This document shows positions 2,966-57,730 of a stretch of DNA of 64,000 bases, piece by piece. The notes below the pieces were generated by a model. That model was given only the letters and a program-made list of their open reading frames with translations, was not told the DNA's origin and did no database searches. The stretch covers positions 1,024,001-1,088,000 of the forward strand of contig OY782781.1 in the NCBI GenBank assembly GCA_963678315.1, given 5' to 3'. A program made the position numbers and the translations under genes. The first letter of the stretch is position 1; each line of letters begins with the position of its first letter. Source of the stretch: Candidatus Cloacimonadales bacterium. GTDB lineage: Bacteria > Cloacimonadota > Cloacimonadia > Cloacimonadales > JAFGVF01.

Positions 2966-4093
2966 ATGGTTGAATTTATAAATTTCTTTGAAACTACAGG
3001 CTTCTATAATATTAACTATCAATACGTACTAATGATGATAATTGGTATGGTGTTTGTTTACCTAGGTATTGCTAAACACTATGAACCATTATTATTAGTT
3101 CCGATTGGTTTTGGTATTATTATTGGAAACATCCCTGGTGTAAGTTTACAGGGGCAAAGTGTTTATGATGAAGGATCAGTGCTATATTATCTATATCAAG
3201 GGGTTAGTAAAGGGTATTATCCTCCTCTAATCTTCCTAGGTATTGGTGCTATGACAGACTTCTCAACGCTTATAGCCAACCCTAAGCTTATTCTTATTGG
3301 TGCTGCTGCTCAAGCAGGTATCTTTATTACATTTATCGGTTCTTTATTACTAGGCTTCAATGTTATGGAAGCAGCTTCTATAGGTATTATCGGTGGTGCT
3401 GACGGTCCTACCTCTATCTACATTTCATCTAAGCTAGCTCCTCATTTATTAGGTGCTATTGCTATTGCTGCTTATTCATATATGGCTTTGGTTCCTGTTA
3501 TTCAACCACCAATTATGAAGCTCTTAACTACCAAAAAAGAACGTGAGATATATATGAAAACACCTAGACTTGTCTCAAAACGTGAAAAGATTATATTCCC
3601 TATTGTGGGTCTTATCGTTACATGTTTCATCGCTCCAGGTGGTATTTCATTACTTGCTATGCTTTTCTTTGGAAACTTACTTAAAGAGTGTGGTGTGACT
3701 GAGAGATTAGCTGATACTGCTAGAAATTCTCTAATGAATATTATTACTATTCTTCTTGGTGTAACAGTTGGTGCAAGTACTGATGCAAGCAAATTCCTTA
3801 ATTTCTCATCAATCAAGATATTCATTCTTGGTGCTTTCTCTTTCTGTGTAGCTACTGCTTTTGGTATCATTTTTACTAAATTCATGAACCTATTCTTGAA
3901 AGAGAAAATTAATCCTCTAATTGGTAACGCTGGTGTGTCTGCTGTGCCTGACTCTGCTCGTGTCTCCCAAATTGAAGGTCAAAAATATAACAAACGTAAT
4001 TTCCTATTAATGCATGCTATGGCACCTAATGTATCTGGTGTTATAGGCTCAGCTGTGGCTGCTGGTGTTATGCTAGGTATTCTAGGAAACTAA
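2966..4093 (+). CDS. mmdB: Na+-translocating decarboxylase beta subunit (OadB/MmdB/GcdB family)
   Basis: EPLLLVPIGFG, IGIIGGADGPT, AAYSYMALVP, GVIGSAVAAG motifs; highly hydrophobic. Confidence 0.92.
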   Translation: MVEFINFFETTGFYNINYQYVLMMIIGMVFVYLGIAKHYEPLLLVPIGFGIIIGNIPGVSLQGQSVYDEGSVLYYLYQGVSKGYYPPLIFLGIGAMTDFSTLIANPKLILIGAAAQAGIFITFIGSLLLGFNVMEAASIGIIGGADGPTSIYISSKLAPHLLGAIAIAAYSYMALVPVIQPPIMKLLTTKKEREIYMKTPRLVSKREKIIFPIVGLIVTCFIAPGGISLLAMLFFGNLLKECGVTERLADTARNSLMNIITILLGVTVGASTDASKFLNFSSIKIFILGAFSFCVATAFGIIFTKFMNLFLKEKINPLIGNAGVSAVPDSARVSQIEGQKYNKRNFLLMHAMAPNVSGVIGSAVAAGVMLGILGN

Positions 4094-4115
4094 AATATAA
4101 TATATTACAAGCAAG

Positions 4116-4149
4116 AAGAGTGTTGACCAAGGTCAGCACTCTTTTTTTT
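4116..4149 (+). terminator. Intrinsic terminator after decarboxylase operon
   Basis: AAGAGTGTTGACC-AA-GGTCAGCACTCTT hairpin followed by T-tract. Confidence 0.8.
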
Positions 4150-4164
4150 ATTATTGAATAGAGA

Positions 4165-4542
4165 TTATTTTATAATATCGAACGAACCTACTTTGTAGTT
4201 GCCCCAGAACCTGCTATAAACAAGGACCAATCTATAATTATTATTCATAGCAATCGGTTGTTTAATATTGAGAGTTCTTATACTATGCTTGATTACTAAT
4301 GAGTTAACTGGTTGATTTAAGGGGTATCTTATTTTAAAACCATTTACTACTGAGCCTGAAGCATAGAGGTGATTATTAATTAAAACATCAACACTAACAT
4401 CTACAAGGAAGTATTTAGGAATAGCTTCTATTTCGAGATAGAAGGCTGAATCTTGGGTCGCATTTTGAGTGAGTTGACTACCGCAGGAACTACAAAATTT
4501 AGCTGAATCTTGATTTTCTATACCACAATTTGGACAAAACAT
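4165..4542 (-). CDS. Zinc-ribbon domain protein
   Basis: N-terminal MFCPNCG...AKFCSSCG; GGAGG RBS upstream. Confidence 0.75.
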   Translation of the reverse strand: MFCPNCGIENQDSAKFCSSCGSQLTQNATQDSAFYLEIEAIPKYFLVDVSVDVLINNHLYASGSVVNGFKIRYPLNQPVNSLVIKHSIRTLNIKQPIAMNNNYRLVLVYSRFWGNYKVGSFDIIK

Positions 4543-4627
4543 ATATCCTCCAATAATATTTTCTTCTTATCAGAATCATTGTATATGTTTTGTATTCAAA
4601 GTATATTTGTGTCAATATTTTCTTGCA

Positions 4628-4662
4628 TAAAGAAAGAGAGTATTACAAAAGCAATACTCTCT
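4628..4662 (-). terminator. Intrinsic terminator after groES-trxA
   Basis: AGAGAGTATTGC-TTTT-GTAATACTCTCT hairpin then TTCTTT on the minus strand. Confidence 0.65.
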
Positions 4663-4695
4663 AAAAGGGGTTATGTCTAAATCTTACAAGATAAT

Positions 4696-5010
4696 CTATA
4701 AGTATGGATCAATCTTTTCAGTAAGTTTAGATTTATTAACTAAGCCAACAGTTTGTTCTTTAACTTCGCCATCTTTAAAAAGGATGACTGTTGGGATAGA
4801 CATTACAGAGAATTTACCTGCTAAGGCAGGAGATTCATCAATATTAATCTTTACTACTTTAATTTTGCCTTCGTATTCAGATGCTATTTTTTCAATAGTA
4901 GGTGTAAGAGCTTTACAAGGACCACACCAAGGTGCCCAAAAATCAGCTAATACAGGAACATCTGACTGTGCAACAACTTCGTCGAAATTAGTTTCGTTAA
5001 CTTCTATCAT
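4696..5010 (-). CDS. trxA: Thioredoxin
   Basis: DFWAPWCGPCK active site, SIPT cis-Pro motif. Confidence 0.96.
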   Translation of the reverse strand: MIEVNETNFDEVVAQSDVPVLADFWAPWCGPCKALTPTIEKIASEYEGKIKVVKINIDESPALAGKFSVMSIPTVILFKDGEVKEQTVGLVNKSKLTEKIDPYL

Positions 5011-5012
5011 TA

Positions 5013-5285
5013 TTACTCCACAATTGCTAAGATGTCTGAACGAGAAAGTATAAGATATTTTTCACCATCTAATTCTACTTCACTTCCACCGTACTTAGCA
5101 TAAAGAACATTATCACCTACTTTAACAACTTCTTGCAAGTCTTCGTCGTTTCCAACAGCGATAACTTCACCGATTTGAGGTTTTTCTTTAGCTGTATCAG
5201 GAATATATAAGTTCCCAACTTTAGTTTCAGTAGGTTTAGTATCCAACTTAATAACCACGCGATCATCAATAGGTTTTAGTAACAT
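5013..5285 (-). CDS. groES: Co-chaperonin GroES
   Basis: KPIDDRVVI, IPDTAKEKPQ.GEVIAVG, VKVGD.VLYAKYGG.EV motifs. Confidence 0.95.
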   Translation of the reverse strand: MLLKPIDDRVVIKLDTKPTETKVGNLYIPDTAKEKPQIGEVIAVGNDEDLQEVVKVGDNVLYAKYGGSEVELDGEKYLILSRSDILAIVE

Positions 5286-5361
5286 CTTTGTACCTCCATC
5301 ATAATAAATATGTTTTTGATATTATAAGTTTTATCTATTTAGCAAACAAAATATATGACTG

Positions 5362-7827
5362 CTAAATTACGTCAAGTTTATTTTTCTTTTTATTTATAAA
5401 TATACCAGCAATAAGCATCAATGTAGATATTACAAGTCCAATTAAAGACAGATTTTTACTTAACTTATAGCTTTCTGGAGCGAATACCATTTCAATTTTC
5501 TGGGTATTTGCGGGAACTTTCACACCTCTAAGGATATGATTTACTGGATAAATTGGAATTTCCTTGCCATCGGCATAGGCTTTCCAACCTTTTGGATAAT
5601 ATATTTCACTTACAACAAGAAAACCATCTTTTTCTAGATTTTTTATATTGAAAGCAACTTTATGATGATAATCTTCTTGTGGAATTTGTTCAACAATACC
5701 ATGACCAAGCTTAGTATCCATTTCAATAGATTCTTCAAGAATAGCAGTATAAGCAGGATCAAAAGATTTACTTCCTAAGAAGCTCAATCTATCTTCTTTA
5801 TCTTCTTTAACTAGAAGTTGTTTAACAAACCAAGCTCTATCCATAGCCCCCATATTAGGAACTAAATATTGTTTATTATCACCACTTCCTACGGAAGCGA
5901 CTGCATTAAAATTGCTAGCATACTGAGCATCTCTTGTTATCAAATATCTAGCATTAAGCATATTAATTGAGTTGAAGTTAAGAGCATTCTTTCTAAGGTC
6001 TTCAATGCGTTGAAGTTTAGCTCCGTGATAACCACCAGTCATTTGATTATAGCTTGCCCAAGTTACATCATCCATATTATCTAAAACATGCACTCGATAA
6101 GTACCTTTTGCATTATTATCTAGTAGATATTTATCAATAGAATTCATAGCAATTTCTGTCGAATCCTTATGAGGGTATAATTTCTTAAAATAAGCACTGT
6201 TTACATGTGATAAATCGTAGATTATAAATACACCAATAATCAGGATAAATACATTCTTAGATATCATTTTCTTTGTATAGAAGAAGATAAGTCCAAAGCC
6301 TGCTGCTAATAAGAATAATCCCATGGATACAGAATCAGTAAGTAGTTTCAATCTTTCAGCTTTGATTGGTCTTATATGGTCCTGGAACTGTGGCGAATTC
6401 ATGAATTGATTAACATCAATATTGTTTTCATTAGCATATTCTGCATATCTTTCTATTTCTGGAGCTCCCATAAAAGCCATATCTTTGAAGATTGTTGAAC
6501 CTGCCACTAAGTTTATGAAGAAGAGACCAACAAATGAGAAGAAGCATATTTTCATAATTTTATTGAACTTCTCATCGTCTTTTTTATTTAGGACCTCTTT
6601 AAATCCTAATGCTGACAGAACAATCATCAAAATTTGCATTATAACAAGATGTGTTGCAGGAACTCTGAATTTATTAAATCCTGGAAGGTGGTCATGCAAG
6701 AAGTTTGATACAAGAGGGAAGTGTCTTCCCATAGACATAATCATAGCCAAGACAACCCCTAACCAAAGAATTTTTGCATACTTTGACTTGGAATAGAAGA
6801 AGGCTAACACCCCTAGTAGTAGAATTATAACTCCTGTATAGTGATAGGCTTGAGTAAATTGCATCCAGCCCCAATAAGATTTTCCTGAACCTTGTGTAGA
6901 GATACCACCAAAGAAATCAGGGAACAAGAATTCTACAAACTCAGCAGGATGCATTGACCAGCTCTGAGCGTATCCTTTTTCTAGTCCACCTTCACCACCA
7001 CGCATACTATATTTAGAATACTCAAAGTTTGAAAGATGTGGATTAGCAACAGCCAGTGCAGATAGAGTAAAGCCAATTAATAGTAAAATAGTAAACAATC
7101 CATGAGCTTTAATTGTCTTATTTTTGATAGCTAATACAAGTTCATATATCCAGAAAACTCCTAAGAATAAGAACATATAGTAGGTGATTTGCAGATGGTT
7201 AGCTCTTAATTCTGAGATTAAAGAAACAGCAAAGAAGCCCAATCCCAGCAGGTTCCTTTTCTCTTTTAAATAGATAAAGGAGTATAGCACCCAAGGTAAA
7301 ATCATTATTGCCTGGAACTTAGTATTATGTCCCATATCTAATAAAGCTACATAATGGGAGGATAAACTAAATGCTAGACCACATATAGAAGCAACCAGGT
7401 TATTCATTTTCAAGAATCTCAGTAAGAAGAAAATGCCTAGTGCTCCTAAAATGAGGTAGGTAAGCTTCCAACTTACAACAGAATGTATTGTATTTATGAT
7501 AGTATTAGTAAAAGGATATTTGTAAGGAAAGCTAATAAGATAGTTTGGCATTCCACCAAAAATATTACTGTTCCATAGAGCTGGGTCTGAGTGTTCTTCA
7601 TTGTATTTAATCACATCATAAGCGGATTTACGCCATTGGTTTGTATCTGGAGCTTCTGGTTCATAGTGAAGAAAACCAATCTTGAAAAACATTATTGAAA
7701 GTACAATTACAATTAATCCAATACCAAACCATTTGTTCTTTAGAAGTGATTCGATAAAAATCCCGATTGGACTTTCGTTTGTTTGCTTGTTAATATTTTT
7801 TCTAACTACTTTATTTCTCTTGCTCAT
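5362..7827 (-). CDS. YfhO-family polytopic membrane protein (GT-C-like)
   Basis: LWNSNIFGGMP, many TM helices, FRVP, GYHGAKL and C-terminal SEIYYPKGWKAY.DG motif. Confidence 0.75.
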   Translation of the reverse strand: MSKRNKVVRKNINKQTNESPIGIFIESLLKNKWFGIGLIVIVLSIMFFKIGFLHYEPEAPDTNQWRKSAYDVIKYNEEHSDPALWNSNIFGGMPNYLISFPYKYPFTNTIINTIHSVVSWKLTYLILGALGIFFLLRFLKMNNLVASICGLAFSLSSHYVALLDMGHNTKFQAIMILPWVLYSFIYLKEKRNLLGLGFFAVSLISELRANHLQITYYMFLFLGVFWIYELVLAIKNKTIKAHGLFTILLLIGFTLSALAVANPHLSNFEYSKYSMRGGEGGLEKGYAQSWSMHPAEFVEFLFPDFFGGISTQGSGKSYWGWMQFTQAYHYTGVIILLLGVLAFFYSKSKYAKILWLGVVLAMIMSMGRHFPLVSNFLHDHLPGFNKFRVPATHLVIMQILMIVLSALGFKEVLNKKDDEKFNKIMKICFFSFVGLFFINLVAGSTIFKDMAFMGAPEIERYAEYANENNIDVNQFMNSPQFQDHIRPIKAERLKLLTDSVSMGLFLLAAGFGLIFFYTKKMISKNVFILIIGVFIIYDLSHVNSAYFKKLYPHKDSTEIAMNSIDKYLLDNNAKGTYRVHVLDNMDDVTWASYNQMTGGYHGAKLQRIEDLRKNALNFNSINMLNARYLITRDAQYASNFNAVASVGSGDNKQYLVPNMGAMDRAWFVKQLLVKEDKEDRLSFLGSKSFDPAYTAILEESIEMDTKLGHGIVEQIPQEDYHHKVAFNIKNLEKDGFLVVSEIYYPKGWKAYADGKEIPIYPVNHILRGVKVPANTQKIEMVFAPESYKLSKNLSLIGLVISTLMLIAGIFINKKKNKLDVI

Positions 7828-24184: not shown

Positions 24185-24456
24185 CTTACTGGTCCCCTTG
24201 AAAAAAAGCCGATTTTTCAATGAGGCAAGTAAGGAAGCAGTTAGAAGTTACTGGGAACGCTTTGCCTTTAGTCCGGCTGCTGCCGGATAGCTGGCTAATA
24301 CTGGGATCGCTTTGCCTTTAGTCCGGCTGCTGCCGGATAGCCGGCTAATACTGGGATCGCCAGCCTCTGTGCTGGCTTCACTTAGAACATAGTGATAAGT
24401 GAATTTGTAGAGACTTATTGAAATATTTCTCTTGTATTGTCCTGAAGGAACGACAT
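24185..24456 (+). repeat. Modular repeat cluster 2 (A, D, D, D, E, degenerate C, inverted F)
   Basis: A 24185-24234; 50-bp tandem D units starting 24249 and 24299, short D at 24349; E TTCACTTAGAACATAGTGATAAGTGAA 24377-24403; GTAGAGAC at 24407; inverted F 24439-24456. Confidence 0.88.
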
Positions 24457-55108: not shown

Positions 55109-55281
55109 CCTTACTAGCCACCTTGAAAAATTGGCTTTTTTTCAAGGAGGCAAGTAAGGACGGAGTTAGACATGAGGAGTTACTGGGAACGCTTTGCCTT
55201 GAGTCTGGCTGCTGCCGGATAGCTGGCTAATAGTGGGAACGCACAGCCCCTAGCTGGCAAAGAGAAGTTAGCAGAAACTGG
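55109..55281 (+). repeat. Modular repeat cluster 5, left part (A, D, D, start of third D)
   Basis: A 55109-55159; D at 55181 and 55231; linker AAAGAGAAGTTAGCA shared with cluster 3; ACTGG 55277-55281 cut by the intron. Confidence 0.88.
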
Positions 55282-57175
55282 ATAGGGGTAGGGGTGCTAT
55301 CATTACTGACACCCCTCCCTCCGAACCGTACGTGCGGTTTTCCCGCATACGGCTCTCCAGATAATAATTTACTCTCTATGTAGAGATTGACATAATTGAC
55401 GGTGGGTTTCGGTTAGAGAGAGAAGCCCAGCGTCTTCAAAGATTTTGTTTGGGTATCTGATATTATCTCTACCTGTTGTAGCTATTCCTTTCCGTTTTTC
55501 AAATTTCTTAAGAATACTTCTTAATCGCCGTCGTATCCAACCATCTAAACTTGGAAAAGTACTTTTATAACAATGTTTATAATATTCAAACCAACCCCGA
55601 ATTATACGGTTTATTCGTTTGATTATTTCTTTTAAGCTTTTCCCATTTGTTCTTCTAGTATGTTTTCTTATACTATCCTTGAATTTCTTTTCGCTCTTAC
55701 GTTTAGGAAACTTTCAGAAAATCTTTATTTTCTCATAGTTCTTAGATTTAACAAACCTATAACCTAAAAAGCCTATCTCATCTTGCATACTATCAAGAAT
55801 TTTAGTCTTTGTAGGATGAAGAATTAACTCAGCTTTTTCCGTCCATTGCTTTACTATTTCAAGAGCTTCTTCTGATTCTTTCTGGCTTCTACACATGATA
55901 ATAAAATCATCAGCATATCTTACCATTTGATAGTATTTGCTACTCATTAACCAGTCGAATTTGTTCAAGTAGATGTTTGCTAACAGTGGACTTAATACTG
56001 CACCTTGTGGTGTTCCTTTTTCGGGAATCCATGTATCTAGCCCATTAAATATACTTTGATTTAGAAATTTCTCAATCAATTCTAATACCCGACTATCAGA
56101 TATTTCTTCTTTTACTAAATCCATTAATTTAGACTTAGGTATTGTATCAAAATATCCTTTTAAATCTGCATCAACTACGTATCGATAGCCTCGGTTAAGG
56201 TTATTATACACTATTCTAAGTGCATCTTTGCAACTTCTTTTAGGTCTAAAACCAAAACTGTTATCTGAAAACTTTATTTCAAATATTGGTTCGATTACAT
56301 TTCTTATTGCTGTTTGAACAATTCTGTCCTCAACTGTTGGAATACCTAAAGGTCGTTTCTCCTTACTTCCAGGTTTATCAATCATTACCCTTTTAATTGC
56401 ATTTGGCTCATATTCCTGCATTTCTAAGCGTTTAGCTAAGCCTTGCAGCCTTTGTTCAAGATGTTTCTCATAGTGAGAAATATTCATCTTATCAACTCCA
56501 GCACTACCTTTATTAGCTTTTACTCTTTTCCATGCAGATAACAGATTAGCTTTTGAATAAACTTTATCTATTAAACTAAACCATTTGCCACCTTTGACTC
56601 CCCTTTGGAGAGCTGTCAACATTTTGTCTGTCCAGACAGATGATTCTGTCCACTCCCATTCTAATCTTAGTTGTGAGTTTTCTTCTTGTTCTTGTTTAGT
56701 CTCTTTTGACACTGTCGAACATTTTTCTTTCATCTGTTTCTCCTTTCAAAATTTTATTATCCTGTTCCCCTTCGCTACTCTTAGGTTATGTTGTCCTAAG
56801 TATCATCACTACTATGAGAACTCTGACTCCTGAATATATCTCTAAACCTATATTCAGGTCTCATAGCTTACCTCTAACTAACTTCTTACCATTCCATCTC
56901 CTACCACATCTAAAGTCCTGATATAACTTTATCACATCATTCAGTTTATCAGGTGTATGATAAAACTCTTTATCATCATCAGTTTTCGCCCTGCGATCGG
57001 AGGCTCAACACTATTAGCTGCCGAAACGAGTTCACTAATGTTACGGACTGGTCTTTCATTTCCTGTTACTCCCCACCTAACCTCACGGTTACGCAGTTAC
57101 ATTCAATTACAAATCTCTGATGTAAGATTTGGTTAGGACTTTCACCTAACAGATAGTTAGATATCACTATCGTAC
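55282..57175 (-). mobile_element. Group II intron (1894 nt) with RT/maturase ORF and no endonuclease domain
   Basis: Minus strand begins GTACG and ends ...CCCCTAT; DV GAGCCGTATGCGGGAAAACCGCACGTACGGTTC with AGC triad, followed by a DVI stem; removing it restores ACTGG|GAACGCCAGC of module D. Confidence 0.92.
55369..56733 (-). pseudogene. ltrA: Group II intron reverse transcriptase/maturase with one in-frame TGA (55714-55716)
   Basis: RPLGIPTVEDR, DADLKGYFDTI, GTPQGAVLSPLLANIYL, RYADD, FLGYRF; after the TGA the same frame gives 114 aa of X domain (IRGWFEYYK, LDGWIRRRLR) to TAA at 55369. Confidence 0.88.
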
Positions 57176-57730
57176 GAACGCCAGCTGCTAGCTGGCTTCA
57201 CTTAGAACATAGTGCTAAGTGAATTTGTAGAGACGAACGGACGTTTGTTTAAATTAAAAAAGATGGTAGATAATTGAGCTCCATTTTATCACCCATGGTT
57301 AAAACCATGGGCTCTTTATTGATTTACCCTTACAGGGTATAAATACCTTTTACTGGAAGAAAGAAGGAACGCGGACACTCCGAATTTGATGAAATATATG
57401 GAGTCAAATGAAGGTTGGTCCGCTTTGAAAGATATTTTCTCGATGGAAATAGCTTTTAAAATTAATCTTACATCTTTAATAAATAGGATTCTAACCTTTC
57501 GAACATCCAGTTAGGATTAAACATTATGTCGTCCCTTCGGGACTCAATTCATTTATATTATTCTACATGGGGTACAAGACTCAGTCAAAGCCTGACACGG
57601 CCCTGGCTTAATATATGACTTCCTTTCAGGACTAATACAAACATCGAATTTGAAAGCTAGAAGCTTGAGTACCCAGATGCTGATGGGGTGTAAGCACCAC
57701 TGATAGCTTGAACAAAGTTCATGCTTAGGC
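57176..57730 (+). repeat. Modular repeat cluster 5, right part (rest of D, E, C, hairpins, F, F, B)
   Basis: GAACGCCAGCTGCTAGCTGGC 57176-57196; E 57197-57223; C from 57227; CCCATGGTTAAAACCATGGG 57292-57311; F 57526-57544 and 57615-57633; B 57688-57730. Confidence 0.85.

Follow-up and report, generated by a model that had tools for sequence, protein, structure and literature searches.

The stretch of DNA analysed here, called the window below, comprises 64,000 nucleotides of a Candidatus Cloacimonadales bacterium (assembly GCA_963678315.1, contig OY782781.1, positions 1,024,001 to 1,088,000 of the forward strand), and the element under study is a group II intron on its minus strand, inserted next to the hairpin of a multicopy repeat (Table 1). 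The host genome consists of one contig of 2,988,751 bp (completeness 97.9%), and Cloacimonadales metagenome-assembled genomes (MAGs) are the closest to it in the public genome collection. An original prediction, made from the letters of the window, had described an endonuclease-less and probably non-IIC intron that homes to a repeat hairpin.

The intron ends were fixed by comparison with a second genomic copy and by alignment of relatives, and the exon ends, hairpin, GTACG start and CCAGT 3' exon of the original prediction were all recovered by direct reading of the minus strand. General features of group II introns are present, namely a consensus of domains V and VI (DV and DVI), a GUGYG-like 5' start (GUACG) and, in domain IV, an open reading frame (ORF) for a reverse transcriptase (RT)/maturase. 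Rfam RF00029 (DV/DVI) matches at 55282-55357(-) with 62.7 bits for a gathering score of 40. The ORF scores 408 bits with TIGR04416 and contains the domains RVT_1 (118-327) and GIIM (349-416); as had been predicted, the domain search that found these two detected no endonuclease domain in it. The ribozyme portion is compact (1,894 - 1,365 = 529 nt outside the ORF). A bulged A in domain VI at 55289, 7 nt from the splice site, is the probable branch point. The Rfam families for D1-D4 all remained below threshold on the window intron (RF01998 with 17.6 bits vs a cutoff of 35), and models of this set do match an intron of an Eubacteriales MAG (locus L010, RF01998) and the second intron family of the host genome (RF02003). 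Domains I-III were folded from six members of the family described below (5' 440-470 nt aligned); the consensus fold contains 108 pairs, of which 40 show compensatory changes.

Table 1. Position of the intron, its pairing elements and the adjoining repeat units in the window
Feature	Position	Strand	Remark or basis
Group II intron	57175-55282	minus	1,894 nt, 5' GUACG...CCCCUAU 3'
5'-exon DNA hairpin GCCAGC-TAGCA-GCTGGC	57196-57191, loop, 57185-57180	minus	direct reading
Intron-binding site 1 (IBS1), GCGUUC	57181-57176	minus	overlaps the last two hairpin bases; faces EBS1
alpha, ACAUCA	57123-57118	minus	loop of the second 5' hairpin of domain I; pairs with alpha'
Exon-binding site 1 (EBS1), GAUCGC, 6-nt loop	56998-56993	minus	pairs with the 5' exon; covariation across the family; framed by conserved CGAG-CCUCC...GCGAAA
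alpha', UGAUGU	56939-56934	minus	terminal loop of the CCUGAUA...UAUCAGG stem
EBS3, G, intron nt 272, in GUG-G-UAGGAG	56904	minus	covariation with the first 3'-exon base
RT/maturase ORF, domain IV	56733-55368	minus	454 codons if the TGA is read through
In-frame TGA, codon 340	55716-55714	minus	ORF translation; linker from RT palm to X/thumb
Domain V	55355-55323	minus	33 nt: AGC triad, 4-bp distal stem, 5-nt loop GAAAA
Domain VI and 3' end	55320-55282	minus	Rfam alignment and direct reading
IBS3, C, first 3'-exon base	55281	minus	pairs with EBS3 G56904
3'-exon start CCAGT	55281-55277	minus	second half of the repeat core CGTTC/CCAGT
Two empty repeat units directly downstream of the intron	cores 55241-55232 and 55191-55182	minus	repeat scan

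Target repeat and second genomic copy

The 3' arm of the 5'-exon hairpin stops 4 nt short of the insertion point, the interval being GTTC (57179-57176); the hairpin scan describes the same site as stem 7, loop 3, gap 4. Joining both exons restores GGCGTTCCCAGT, so that a repeat unit is rebuilt as had been proposed, and the joined-exon core CGTTCCCAGT is present 149 times in the genome (60 plus, 89 minus) for 1.5 occurrences expected from base composition. The intron interrupts the repeat core CGTTC/CCAGT, and the repeat arm upstream of this core differs from unit to unit. Four empty units are found in the window at 24259, 33725, 55191 and 55241 (first C of CGTTCCCA, minus strand), within about 10 nt of the positions given in the original prediction, the one at 55241 being the variant CGTTCCCACT.

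The second copy of the intron, at C1:2505193-2507086, is 99.4% identical to the first (11 differences) and occupies the site GCCAGC-ACGGAG-GCTGGC-GTTC/CCAGT, which is the same repeat subtype with another loop. Outside the repeat, the sequences that flank the two copies are unrelated. A genome-wide census counted 184 GTTC/CCAG units. The site is preceded by GCGTTC in 145 of the 184, and a perfect hairpin of at least 5 bp ends no more than 9 nt upstream in 61; hairpins of at least 6 bp were found in 24, all empty units, and 11 empty units match the occupied subtype exactly (stem 6-7 bp, gap 4). With the two occupied units the subtype has 13 members, and the random chance of both copies falling in it is 13/186 x 12/185 = 0.0045 (calculated by hand). 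Insertion of the intron at the repeat hairpin is real and far beyond chance. The claim that the repeat provides many harmless targets holds in part only: of the 184 units, no more than 24 empty ones carry a hairpin of at least 6 bp and no more than 11 empty ones belong to the occupied subtype, and the intron has just two copies, each with an in-frame stop.

Two side observations were made on this genome. The CGTTCCCAGT units are biased with respect to replication, the lagging-strand orientation being found in 101 of 149 units and 59 of 86 clusters (strands were assigned by GC skew, with the origin near 0.73 Mb and the terminus near 2.0 Mb); this orientation opposes that of the majority of long ORFs and is common to both intron copies. 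The genome also contains a second, unrelated group II intron family in two copies, L015:870-2776 (= G000:C1:982661-984567, plus) and a twin in L016, in both of which the RT is split over two reading frames. This family matches RF02003 and RF00029 and has a 5-nt DV loop; its 5' exons are alike and carry no GC hairpin, and it looks like a sequence-specific homer.

Upstream hairpins and exon pairing across the lineage

The public genome collection contains 12 related loci. Three copies with 88% nucleotide identity (93-94% at the protein level) occur in two other Cloacimonadales genomes, all behind hairpins, the sites being CGCGGG-N7-CCCGCG-ACC (twice) and CGGGC-N6-GCCCG-AGTTC; CCAGT continues two of the three sites, and a further hairpin-TTTCCCAGT unit lies nearby. 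Location in a multicopy repeat hairpin, as originally proposed for the window copy, thus holds likewise for the second copy and for these relatives. A more distant intron (L004-L008; RT 61-63% identical) is present in one genome as six copies with identical RTs. Four of these stand behind CCCATAGC-N4-GCTATGGG-CTA (a pair of them within a single tandem array, in alternate units), and the remaining two behind CCGGGC-TTAC-GCCCGG-GTGTTA and CGGATT-GA-AATCCG-AGCGTTA. Copies with identical RT and EBS1 are therefore found behind hairpins that are unrelated, with just (C/T)TA in common by the site, which argues against a sequence-specific IBS2. The genome with the six copies holds 24 empty copies of the main target unit (up to 2 mismatches) vs 0 for a reversed control pattern.

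In the tandem hairpin array mentioned above, the two identical introns occupy L008:2039-3908 and about 4049-5918, with empty units between and beside them. Another Cloacimonadota MAG contains a derivative of about 1.0 kb (L012:2036-3066) of the L009-type intron, from which the ORF is deleted and in which both ribozyme ends are kept; like the L009-type intron, it sits behind a GTCCC-ATC-GGGAC hairpin.

The lineage, referred to as family X, was enlarged by a scan of metagenome contigs with an RT alignment, which returned 539 relatives in 596 candidate stretches; the best 80 were kept (38-54% identity), and an nhmmer profile built from the six-sequence ribozyme alignment matched 64 of these 80 metagenome loci (67 rows). 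Fifty-seven 5' exons of at least 25 nt were mapped, including those of the genome loci and of both copies in the host genome, and these collapse to 49 distinct sites. A site was considered as hairpin-bearing when a perfect hairpin of at least 5 bp ended 2-9 nt upstream of it. This was the case for 44 of the 49 distinct sites (38 with at least 6 bp), and for a mean of 4.8 sites, with a maximum of 11, in 200 shuffles of the exons. The distance from hairpin to site is most often 4 nt (21 of 44), followed by 3 nt (10), and the stem sequences vary freely among many hosts. Among the 28 family X targets that could be reconstructed from the two exons, none shows a T tract behind its hairpin; the targets are GC-rich palindromes resembling repetitive extragenic palindromic (REP) elements, and not intrinsic terminators. 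The window intron, which had been presented as a single odd case, is accordingly a member of a large lineage in which an upstream hairpin and a short IBS1 are the rule.

Among lineages outside family X with an AGC triad and a 5-nt DV loop, two loci have a hairpin at a distance of 5-8 nt before the presumed 5' splice site: L098 (about 50-98, a metagenome contig) and L103 (about 560-598, a Sulfobacillus plasmid). From these two loci, hairpin targeting may be wider than family X plus IIC. An upstream hairpin is absent at L015/L016, L088 and L095, and the comparison excludes L081, L082, L084, L087, L089, L091, L093, L097 and L107, the 5' ends of which are unmapped.

Pairing of the intron with its exons was deduced from covariation. 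The EBS1 loop is located one hairpin before the alpha' loop and is framed by conserved CGAG..CUGC and GCGAAG. At least 4 contiguous EBS1-IBS1 pairs are formed at 38 of 47 distinct sites (16 sites with 4 bp, 17 with 5 bp and 5 with 6 bp; the other 9 have at most 3 bp), whereas permuted partners give a mean of 5.3 sites and a maximum of 15 in 1,000 permutations. Examples are UAGCCU/GGGCUA in L004 (6 bp), AAUAUC/GGUAUU in L009 (6 bp) and GAGCGC/AGUUC in L003 (4 bp). In the window copy, GAUCGC faces GCGUUC with 5 of 6 positions paired and a central U-U mismatch at -3; with the EBS1 version of L003, GAGCGC, pairing to the repeat consensus GCGUUC would be complete (6 of 6 positions). The EBS3-IBS3 pair was found in all 29 family members with both ends known (C:G 17, A:U 5, U:A 4, U:G 3). 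The alpha-alpha' pairing covaries as well, L004 having ACGUCA/UGACGU at the matching places, and the best loop-to-loop complementarity over 47 distinct family sequences has a mean of 5.57, compared with 4.63 for permuted partners (maximum 5.09 in 300 permutations). A column-wise count of alpha-alpha' pairs on the hidden Markov model (HMM) alignment showed no signal, because the loops are misaligned in it. A non-exhaustive search found no intron loop complementary to target positions -7 to -12, where an EBS2 would pair.

The loop GAAUG (56942-56938), formerly taken for EBS1, was rejected, as this loop holds alpha' and the relatives L001 and L003 read GUAUG there. As a side observation, the 5' exon of L047 (about 150-200, a metagenome contig; RT identity only 49%) also ends in GGCGTTC, and its EBS1 begins with GAUCG, with the same U-U mismatch. 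This recurrence hints that the mismatch is tolerated, or that the EBS1 register is incompletely understood.

Class assignment, mobility and alternative explanations

Domain V was typed over 96 loci with a pairing-based finder, which replaced earlier and narrower regular expressions. An AGC triad with a 4-bp distal stem and a 5-nt loop was found in 75 of the 96 loci, including the window intron and all its relatives. A CGC triad with 3 bp and a 4-nt loop was found in exactly three: L010, L101, from a Ligilactobacillus plasmid and located behind a T-rich hairpin, and L102, from an Aeromonas plasmid, which follows an attC-like hairpin and lies between integron cassettes. AGC is combined with 5 bp and a 4-nt loop in three outgroups, namely L104 (Sinorhizobium), L106 (Bacillus cereus, RT with endonuclease) and L105 (Shigella flexneri); the intron S.f.I1, to which L105 may correspond, is assigned to class A (Toro and Martinez-Abarca 2013, PMC3552965). 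No DV was found in 12 loci, mostly contig ends, and 3 calls were spurious.

The RT phylogeny (87 rows) was inferred with IQ-TREE under LG+G4 with a quick search and support from the Shimodaira-Hasegawa-like approximate likelihood ratio test (SH-aLRT); ORFs shorter than 380 aa and the duplicate loci L002, L005-L008 and L013-L018 were left out. The window RT lies within a family X clade of 64 rows (support 100), and the three CGC-type RTs form a separate clade (support 99) elsewhere among other lineages of the AGC/5-nt-loop type. For comparison with solved structures, the references for class C, i.e. the IIC introns, were the GsI-IIC RT and PDB 7UIM, which we take to be the Eubacterium rectale IIC RT, the title of the entry being silent on this point. 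The CGC-type RT of L010 matches these two with 392 and 361 bits over the full length, whereas the window RT obtains 209 and 214 bits without a C-terminal match, and the family member L019 obtains 244 and 201 bits. IIB and IIA RT structures give about 140-150 bits with L010, L019 and the window RT (139 for the latter). Taken together, bit scores and tree place the window RT nearer to class C than to the chloroplast-like and mitochondria-like (CL/ML) classes, yet outside the CGC-type group.

By its published definition, the IIC ribozyme has a DV in which the triad reads CGC and not AGC and the distal stem is shortened by 2 bp, an 11-nt epsilon' bulge that contains a conserved AGGAA, an IBS1 of 3-4 bp, no EBS2 and an upstream stem-loop (Toor et al. 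2006, PMC1702495; this and the other papers cited, Toro and Martinez-Abarca 2013 excepted, are used as far as their text was available). Some of these traits are found in the window intron: a hairpin ends 4 nt upstream at both copies, and the 3' exon is recognised by an EBS3-IBS3 pair of the IIB type, which is also an IIC trait. For AGGAA the picture is mixed, the motif being present in the window copy (A1 columns 112-117), relatives reading UGGAAG or CGGAAG and L004 lacking it. Other traits are not found. The triad is AGC, the distal stem has 4 bp as against 3 in the CGC-type loci and 5 in L104-L106, and the intron-encoded protein (IEP) lies outside the CGC-type clade in a quick tree with three class C references. 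The original assignment to a probably non-IIC class is supported by the AGC triad, by a DV that is not shortened by 2 bp and by an RT phylogeny apart from the CGC type; as for its description of the DV, the AGC was correct and "full-length" was only nearly so, given the 4-bp distal stem and the 5-nt loop. Three outcomes had been named in advance as contradicting that proposal, i.e. related copies in unrelated sequences, EBS1/EBS2 pairing sufficient to explain targeting, and an RT of ordinary class C, and none of them was encountered.

The reading that we consider probable is that of an endonuclease-less group II retroelement belonging to a large coherent lineage (family X), with a DV of the IIB-like E/F type, that selects its targets in the manner of IIC by hairpin, EBS1 and EBS3. 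A ribonucleoprotein (RNP) made of lariat RNA and RT/maturase would find a hairpin in DNA (or in 5'-exon RNA) that, by analogy with IIC, would be read by its shape and not by its sequence. The hairpin would probably be met at a replication fork, where the DNA is single-stranded; such a route is the one proposed for introns that lack an endonuclease (Zimmerly and Semper 2015, PMC4424553). EBS1 would pair with 4-6 bases beginning about at the end of the stem and EBS3 with the next base, and reverse splicing would then take place about 4 nt past the stem without an endonuclease. In the host genome all three cues would be supplied by a single REP-like repeat subtype, GCCAGC-N5/6-GCTGGC followed by GCGTTC/C, which would be why the intron splits the core CGTTC/CCAGT.

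The TGA inside the ORF bears on the mobility of the present copies. Alignment to IIC RTs places it after RT motif 7 and before the X/thumb domain, in a linker that is variable. It is common to both copies of the host genome and to the three 88% copies of two other genomes (L001, L002 and L003, at 3518-3520), i.e. to five copies in three genomes, and an order-wide search found it in G000, G022 and G040 only, other family members being without it. Of the ORF pairings compared between YADD and the X motif across all examined loci, 82 are free of stops, 5 have one stop and 1 has a frameshift; the five with one stop are three of the TGA lineage plus L040 and L047, in which the stop is at other positions. 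Between the window copy and L001, the synonymous divergence (dS) is 0.52 upstream and 0.85 downstream of the TGA, and the ratio of non-synonymous to synonymous divergence (dN/dS) is 0.057 and 0.044, respectively, with 35 synonymous vs 10 non-synonymous differences downstream. The ratios on both sides indicate that purifying selection has acted on the downstream domain, in an unchanged frame, ever since the divergence of the copies. This domain holds no methionine codon for a start of its own, and contigs from three other public runs (three studies) cover the TGA codon without difference.

The simplest reading of these data would be that the TGA is read through or otherwise recoded. The genome encodes a tRNA-Sec (C1:2291151-2291245), and no convincing selenocysteine insertion sequence (SECIS) hairpin was found downstream of the TGA (minimum free energy -11.2 kcal/mol, z = -1.73). 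Genome-wide recoding of TGA is unlikely in view of the long ORFs that are intact under table 11 and of the completeness of the genome. To our knowledge, no such translational switch has been described for a group II intron. A bolder proposition links two points: family X would be an undescribed class-level lineage of structure-guided introns specialised in REP-like palindromes, and the UGA of the Cloacimonadales branch would be a programmed recoding (read-through or selenocysteine) that throttles the full-length protein. We regard this pair of claims as tentative, and as more probably wrong than right in its entirety.

Several observations weigh against the reading of a mobile, hairpin-guided intron outside class C. 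On the side of the classification, the RT tree, with SH-aLRT support only, contains three CGC-type IIC references and is without class-labelled E, F or g1 sequences, and the exclusion from class C depends on this thin reference set together with the DV criterion. As to targeting, 5 of the 49 distinct sites have no perfect hairpin under the rule used, part of the hairpin association could reflect a palindromic niche instead of recognition, and only 2 contiguous EBS1-IBS1 pairs are formed in the window copy (1 in L001/L002). Regarding mobility, both copies of the host genome carry the in-frame TGA, the second copy carries another stop besides it, and the intron has only two copies despite the 11 empty units of the same subtype. 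Neither an exact empty site nor a ligated-exon junction for the window locus (the junction expected after splicing being GCTGGCGTTC-CCAGT) was seen in public contigs. Those joints in public contigs that skip about 1.94-2.04 kb link different repeat units, and hence represent no exact empty site, and the public RNA run X20 spans just 56586-56929, which is no proof of splicing.

The alternative that survives best, to which we give somewhat less than one chance in three, accepts that the lineage targets hairpins and holds that both copies of the host genome are immobile relics, spread or kept by recombination between repeats or mobilised in trans, the TGA being a fixed defect. The stops just mentioned and the 11 differences between the copies would fit this explanation, as would the EBS1 mismatched to its target, the free sites of the same subtype and the composition of the rest of the genome, in which no intact family X RT is found and the sole other intron family has a split RT. 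It is harder to reconcile with a TGA common to copies of two other genomes at a dS of 0.5-0.85, with a dN/dS of 0.04-0.06 on both sides that points to selection on the downstream domain in frame, or with outer flanks that are unrelated beyond the repeat, as noted above. Under the reading of a hairpin-guided intron that we prefer, the two copies would still be able to move; they may be weakly active or inactive, given the EBS1 mismatch, the TGA, the second stop in copy 2 and the number of copies.

It seems unlikely to us that the element is an ordinary class C intron for which a repeat hairpin takes the place of a terminator and whose DV differences are variation within the class. Targeting across the family is IIC-like, the best matches of the window RT among solved structures are IIC RTs (214 and 209 bits vs 139 for IIB/IIA), IIC introns are reported after terminators "or other inverted repeats" in the available part of Toor et al. 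2006 (PMC1702495), and divergent class C ORFs outside the main node have been mentioned (Toro and Martinez-Abarca 2013, PMC3552965). Against these points stand the AGC triad, 4-bp distal stem and 5-nt loop where IIC has CGC and a stem 2 bp shorter, the two well-supported and separate RT clades, the full-length and much higher scores of the true IIC RT of L010, and an IBS1 of mostly 4-5 bp, up to 6, read by a 6-nt loop. Ordinary sequence-specific homing through EBS1 and EBS2, the hairpin being incidental to a palindromic home repeat, is less likely still: most copies within each genome do occupy one repeat type, EBS1 is a 6-nt loop as in IIB introns and covarying EBS2-IBS2 pairs are reported for classes E/F in the accessible text of Nagy et al. 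2013 (PMC3753933), but introns with identical RT and EBS1 stand behind three unrelated hairpins sharing only (C/T)TA, the hairpin keeps its distance (mode 4 nt) in 44 of 49 sites while the stem sequences are free, and no loop complementary to -7 to -12 was found in the non-exhaustive search.

Significance and comparison with known systems

Hairpin-guided and nearly sequence-free DNA targeting has so far been treated as the hallmark of class C alone, as far as the consulted portions of two reviews go (Zimmerly and Semper 2015, PMC4424553; Gomes et al. 2025, PMC12584367). A sister lineage that is large and widespread and has a different DV would offer a natural comparison for determining which parts of the RNP read a DNA hairpin, and would be relevant to the question of whether the small IIC ribozyme represents the ancestral or the derived state; if family X is an undescribed class-level lineage, hairpin recognition would predate the reduced IIC ribozyme or be independent of it. 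REP-like repeats would join terminators and attC sites as places where retroelements can settle safely. New tools for structure-directed gene targeting might be developed from members in which the RT is intact, for instance the intron present six times in the L004-L008 genome, and the conserved UGA, if it is read through, would constitute a simple dosage control of a retroelement protein.

A literature search (subscription papers and the Zimmerly intron database being outside its reach) found no description of a non-IIC lineage that targets hairpins. In the text available to us, sequence-specific homing is ascribed to every lineage except class C (Zimmerly and Semper 2015, PMC4424553), upstream secondary structure is said to have had no reported role in IIB introns (Sonbol and Siam 2021, PMC7923331), and only IIC is named as hairpin-recognising (Gomes et al. 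2025, PMC12584367).

Among transposable elements, the insertion sequences ISPpu9, ISPpu10, ISPa11 and IS1397 are comparable in that they are mobile elements for which a multicopy intergenic palindrome, the REP, is a safe place to insert (Tobes and Pareja 2006, PMC1525189, accessible portion); they differ from the window intron in being DNA transposons. A group II intron of Pseudomonas putida KT2440 is tied to REPs in 2 of 9 copies according to the same excerpt (Tobes and Pareja 2006, PMC1525189), which is a weak association; an intron P.p.I2, possibly the same one, is listed under CL1A (Toro and Martinez-Abarca 2013, PMC3552965).

Classes IIE and IIF are characterised by a 5-nt DV loop, an alpha' that lies in distal domain I and caps a stem-loop, and a size of 450-700 nt without the IEP, and are described as site-specific homers with a conserved, covarying EBS2-IBS2 pair (Nagy et al. 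2013, PMC3753933, as available). The window intron resembles them by its GAAAA DV loop, its terminal-loop alpha', its 529 nt outside the ORF and the lack of an endonuclease domain. It differs from them in that EBS2-IBS2 is not evident, that the hairpin occupies positions -7 to -12, and that three unrelated sequences are found there behind identical introns. Family X was compared with varieties g1-g4 or "class G" through published descriptions and intron names only, the names linked to g1 or "class G" being Ca.ac.I1, Rh.js.I1 and Sr.me.I2. The intron name Ca.ac.I1 presumably stands for Candidatus Cloacimonas acidaminovorans, which is of the same phylum as the relatives of the host genome. Variety g1, which includes Ca.ac.I1, was split off by Toro and Martinez-Abarca 2013 (PMC3552965); the term "class G" is used in the accessible text of Toro et al. 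2018 (PMC5894124), and in that of Monachello et al. 2016 (PMC4748821) F and g1 served as the outgroup to class C.

A close likeness exists with class C (B.h.I1, GsI-IIC and the IIC-attC introns). Family X and class C have in common the absence of an endonuclease domain, a compact ribozyme, insertion a few nucleotides downstream of a DNA stem-loop, a short IBS1, an EBS3-IBS3 pair, an absence of EBS2 (apparent in the present case) and multiple copies in intergenic DNA, and the RT of the window intron is nearest to IIC RTs among solved structures. They are distinguished by the DV, which has AGC, 4 bp and a 5-nt loop here and CGC, 3 bp and a 4-nt loop in IIC, by an RT that lies outside the CGC-type clade, by an EBS1 that is a 6-nt loop giving mostly 4-5 bp, and by the targets, which in family X are REP-like palindromes rich in GC, with a T tract in 0 of 28, and not terminators or attC sites.

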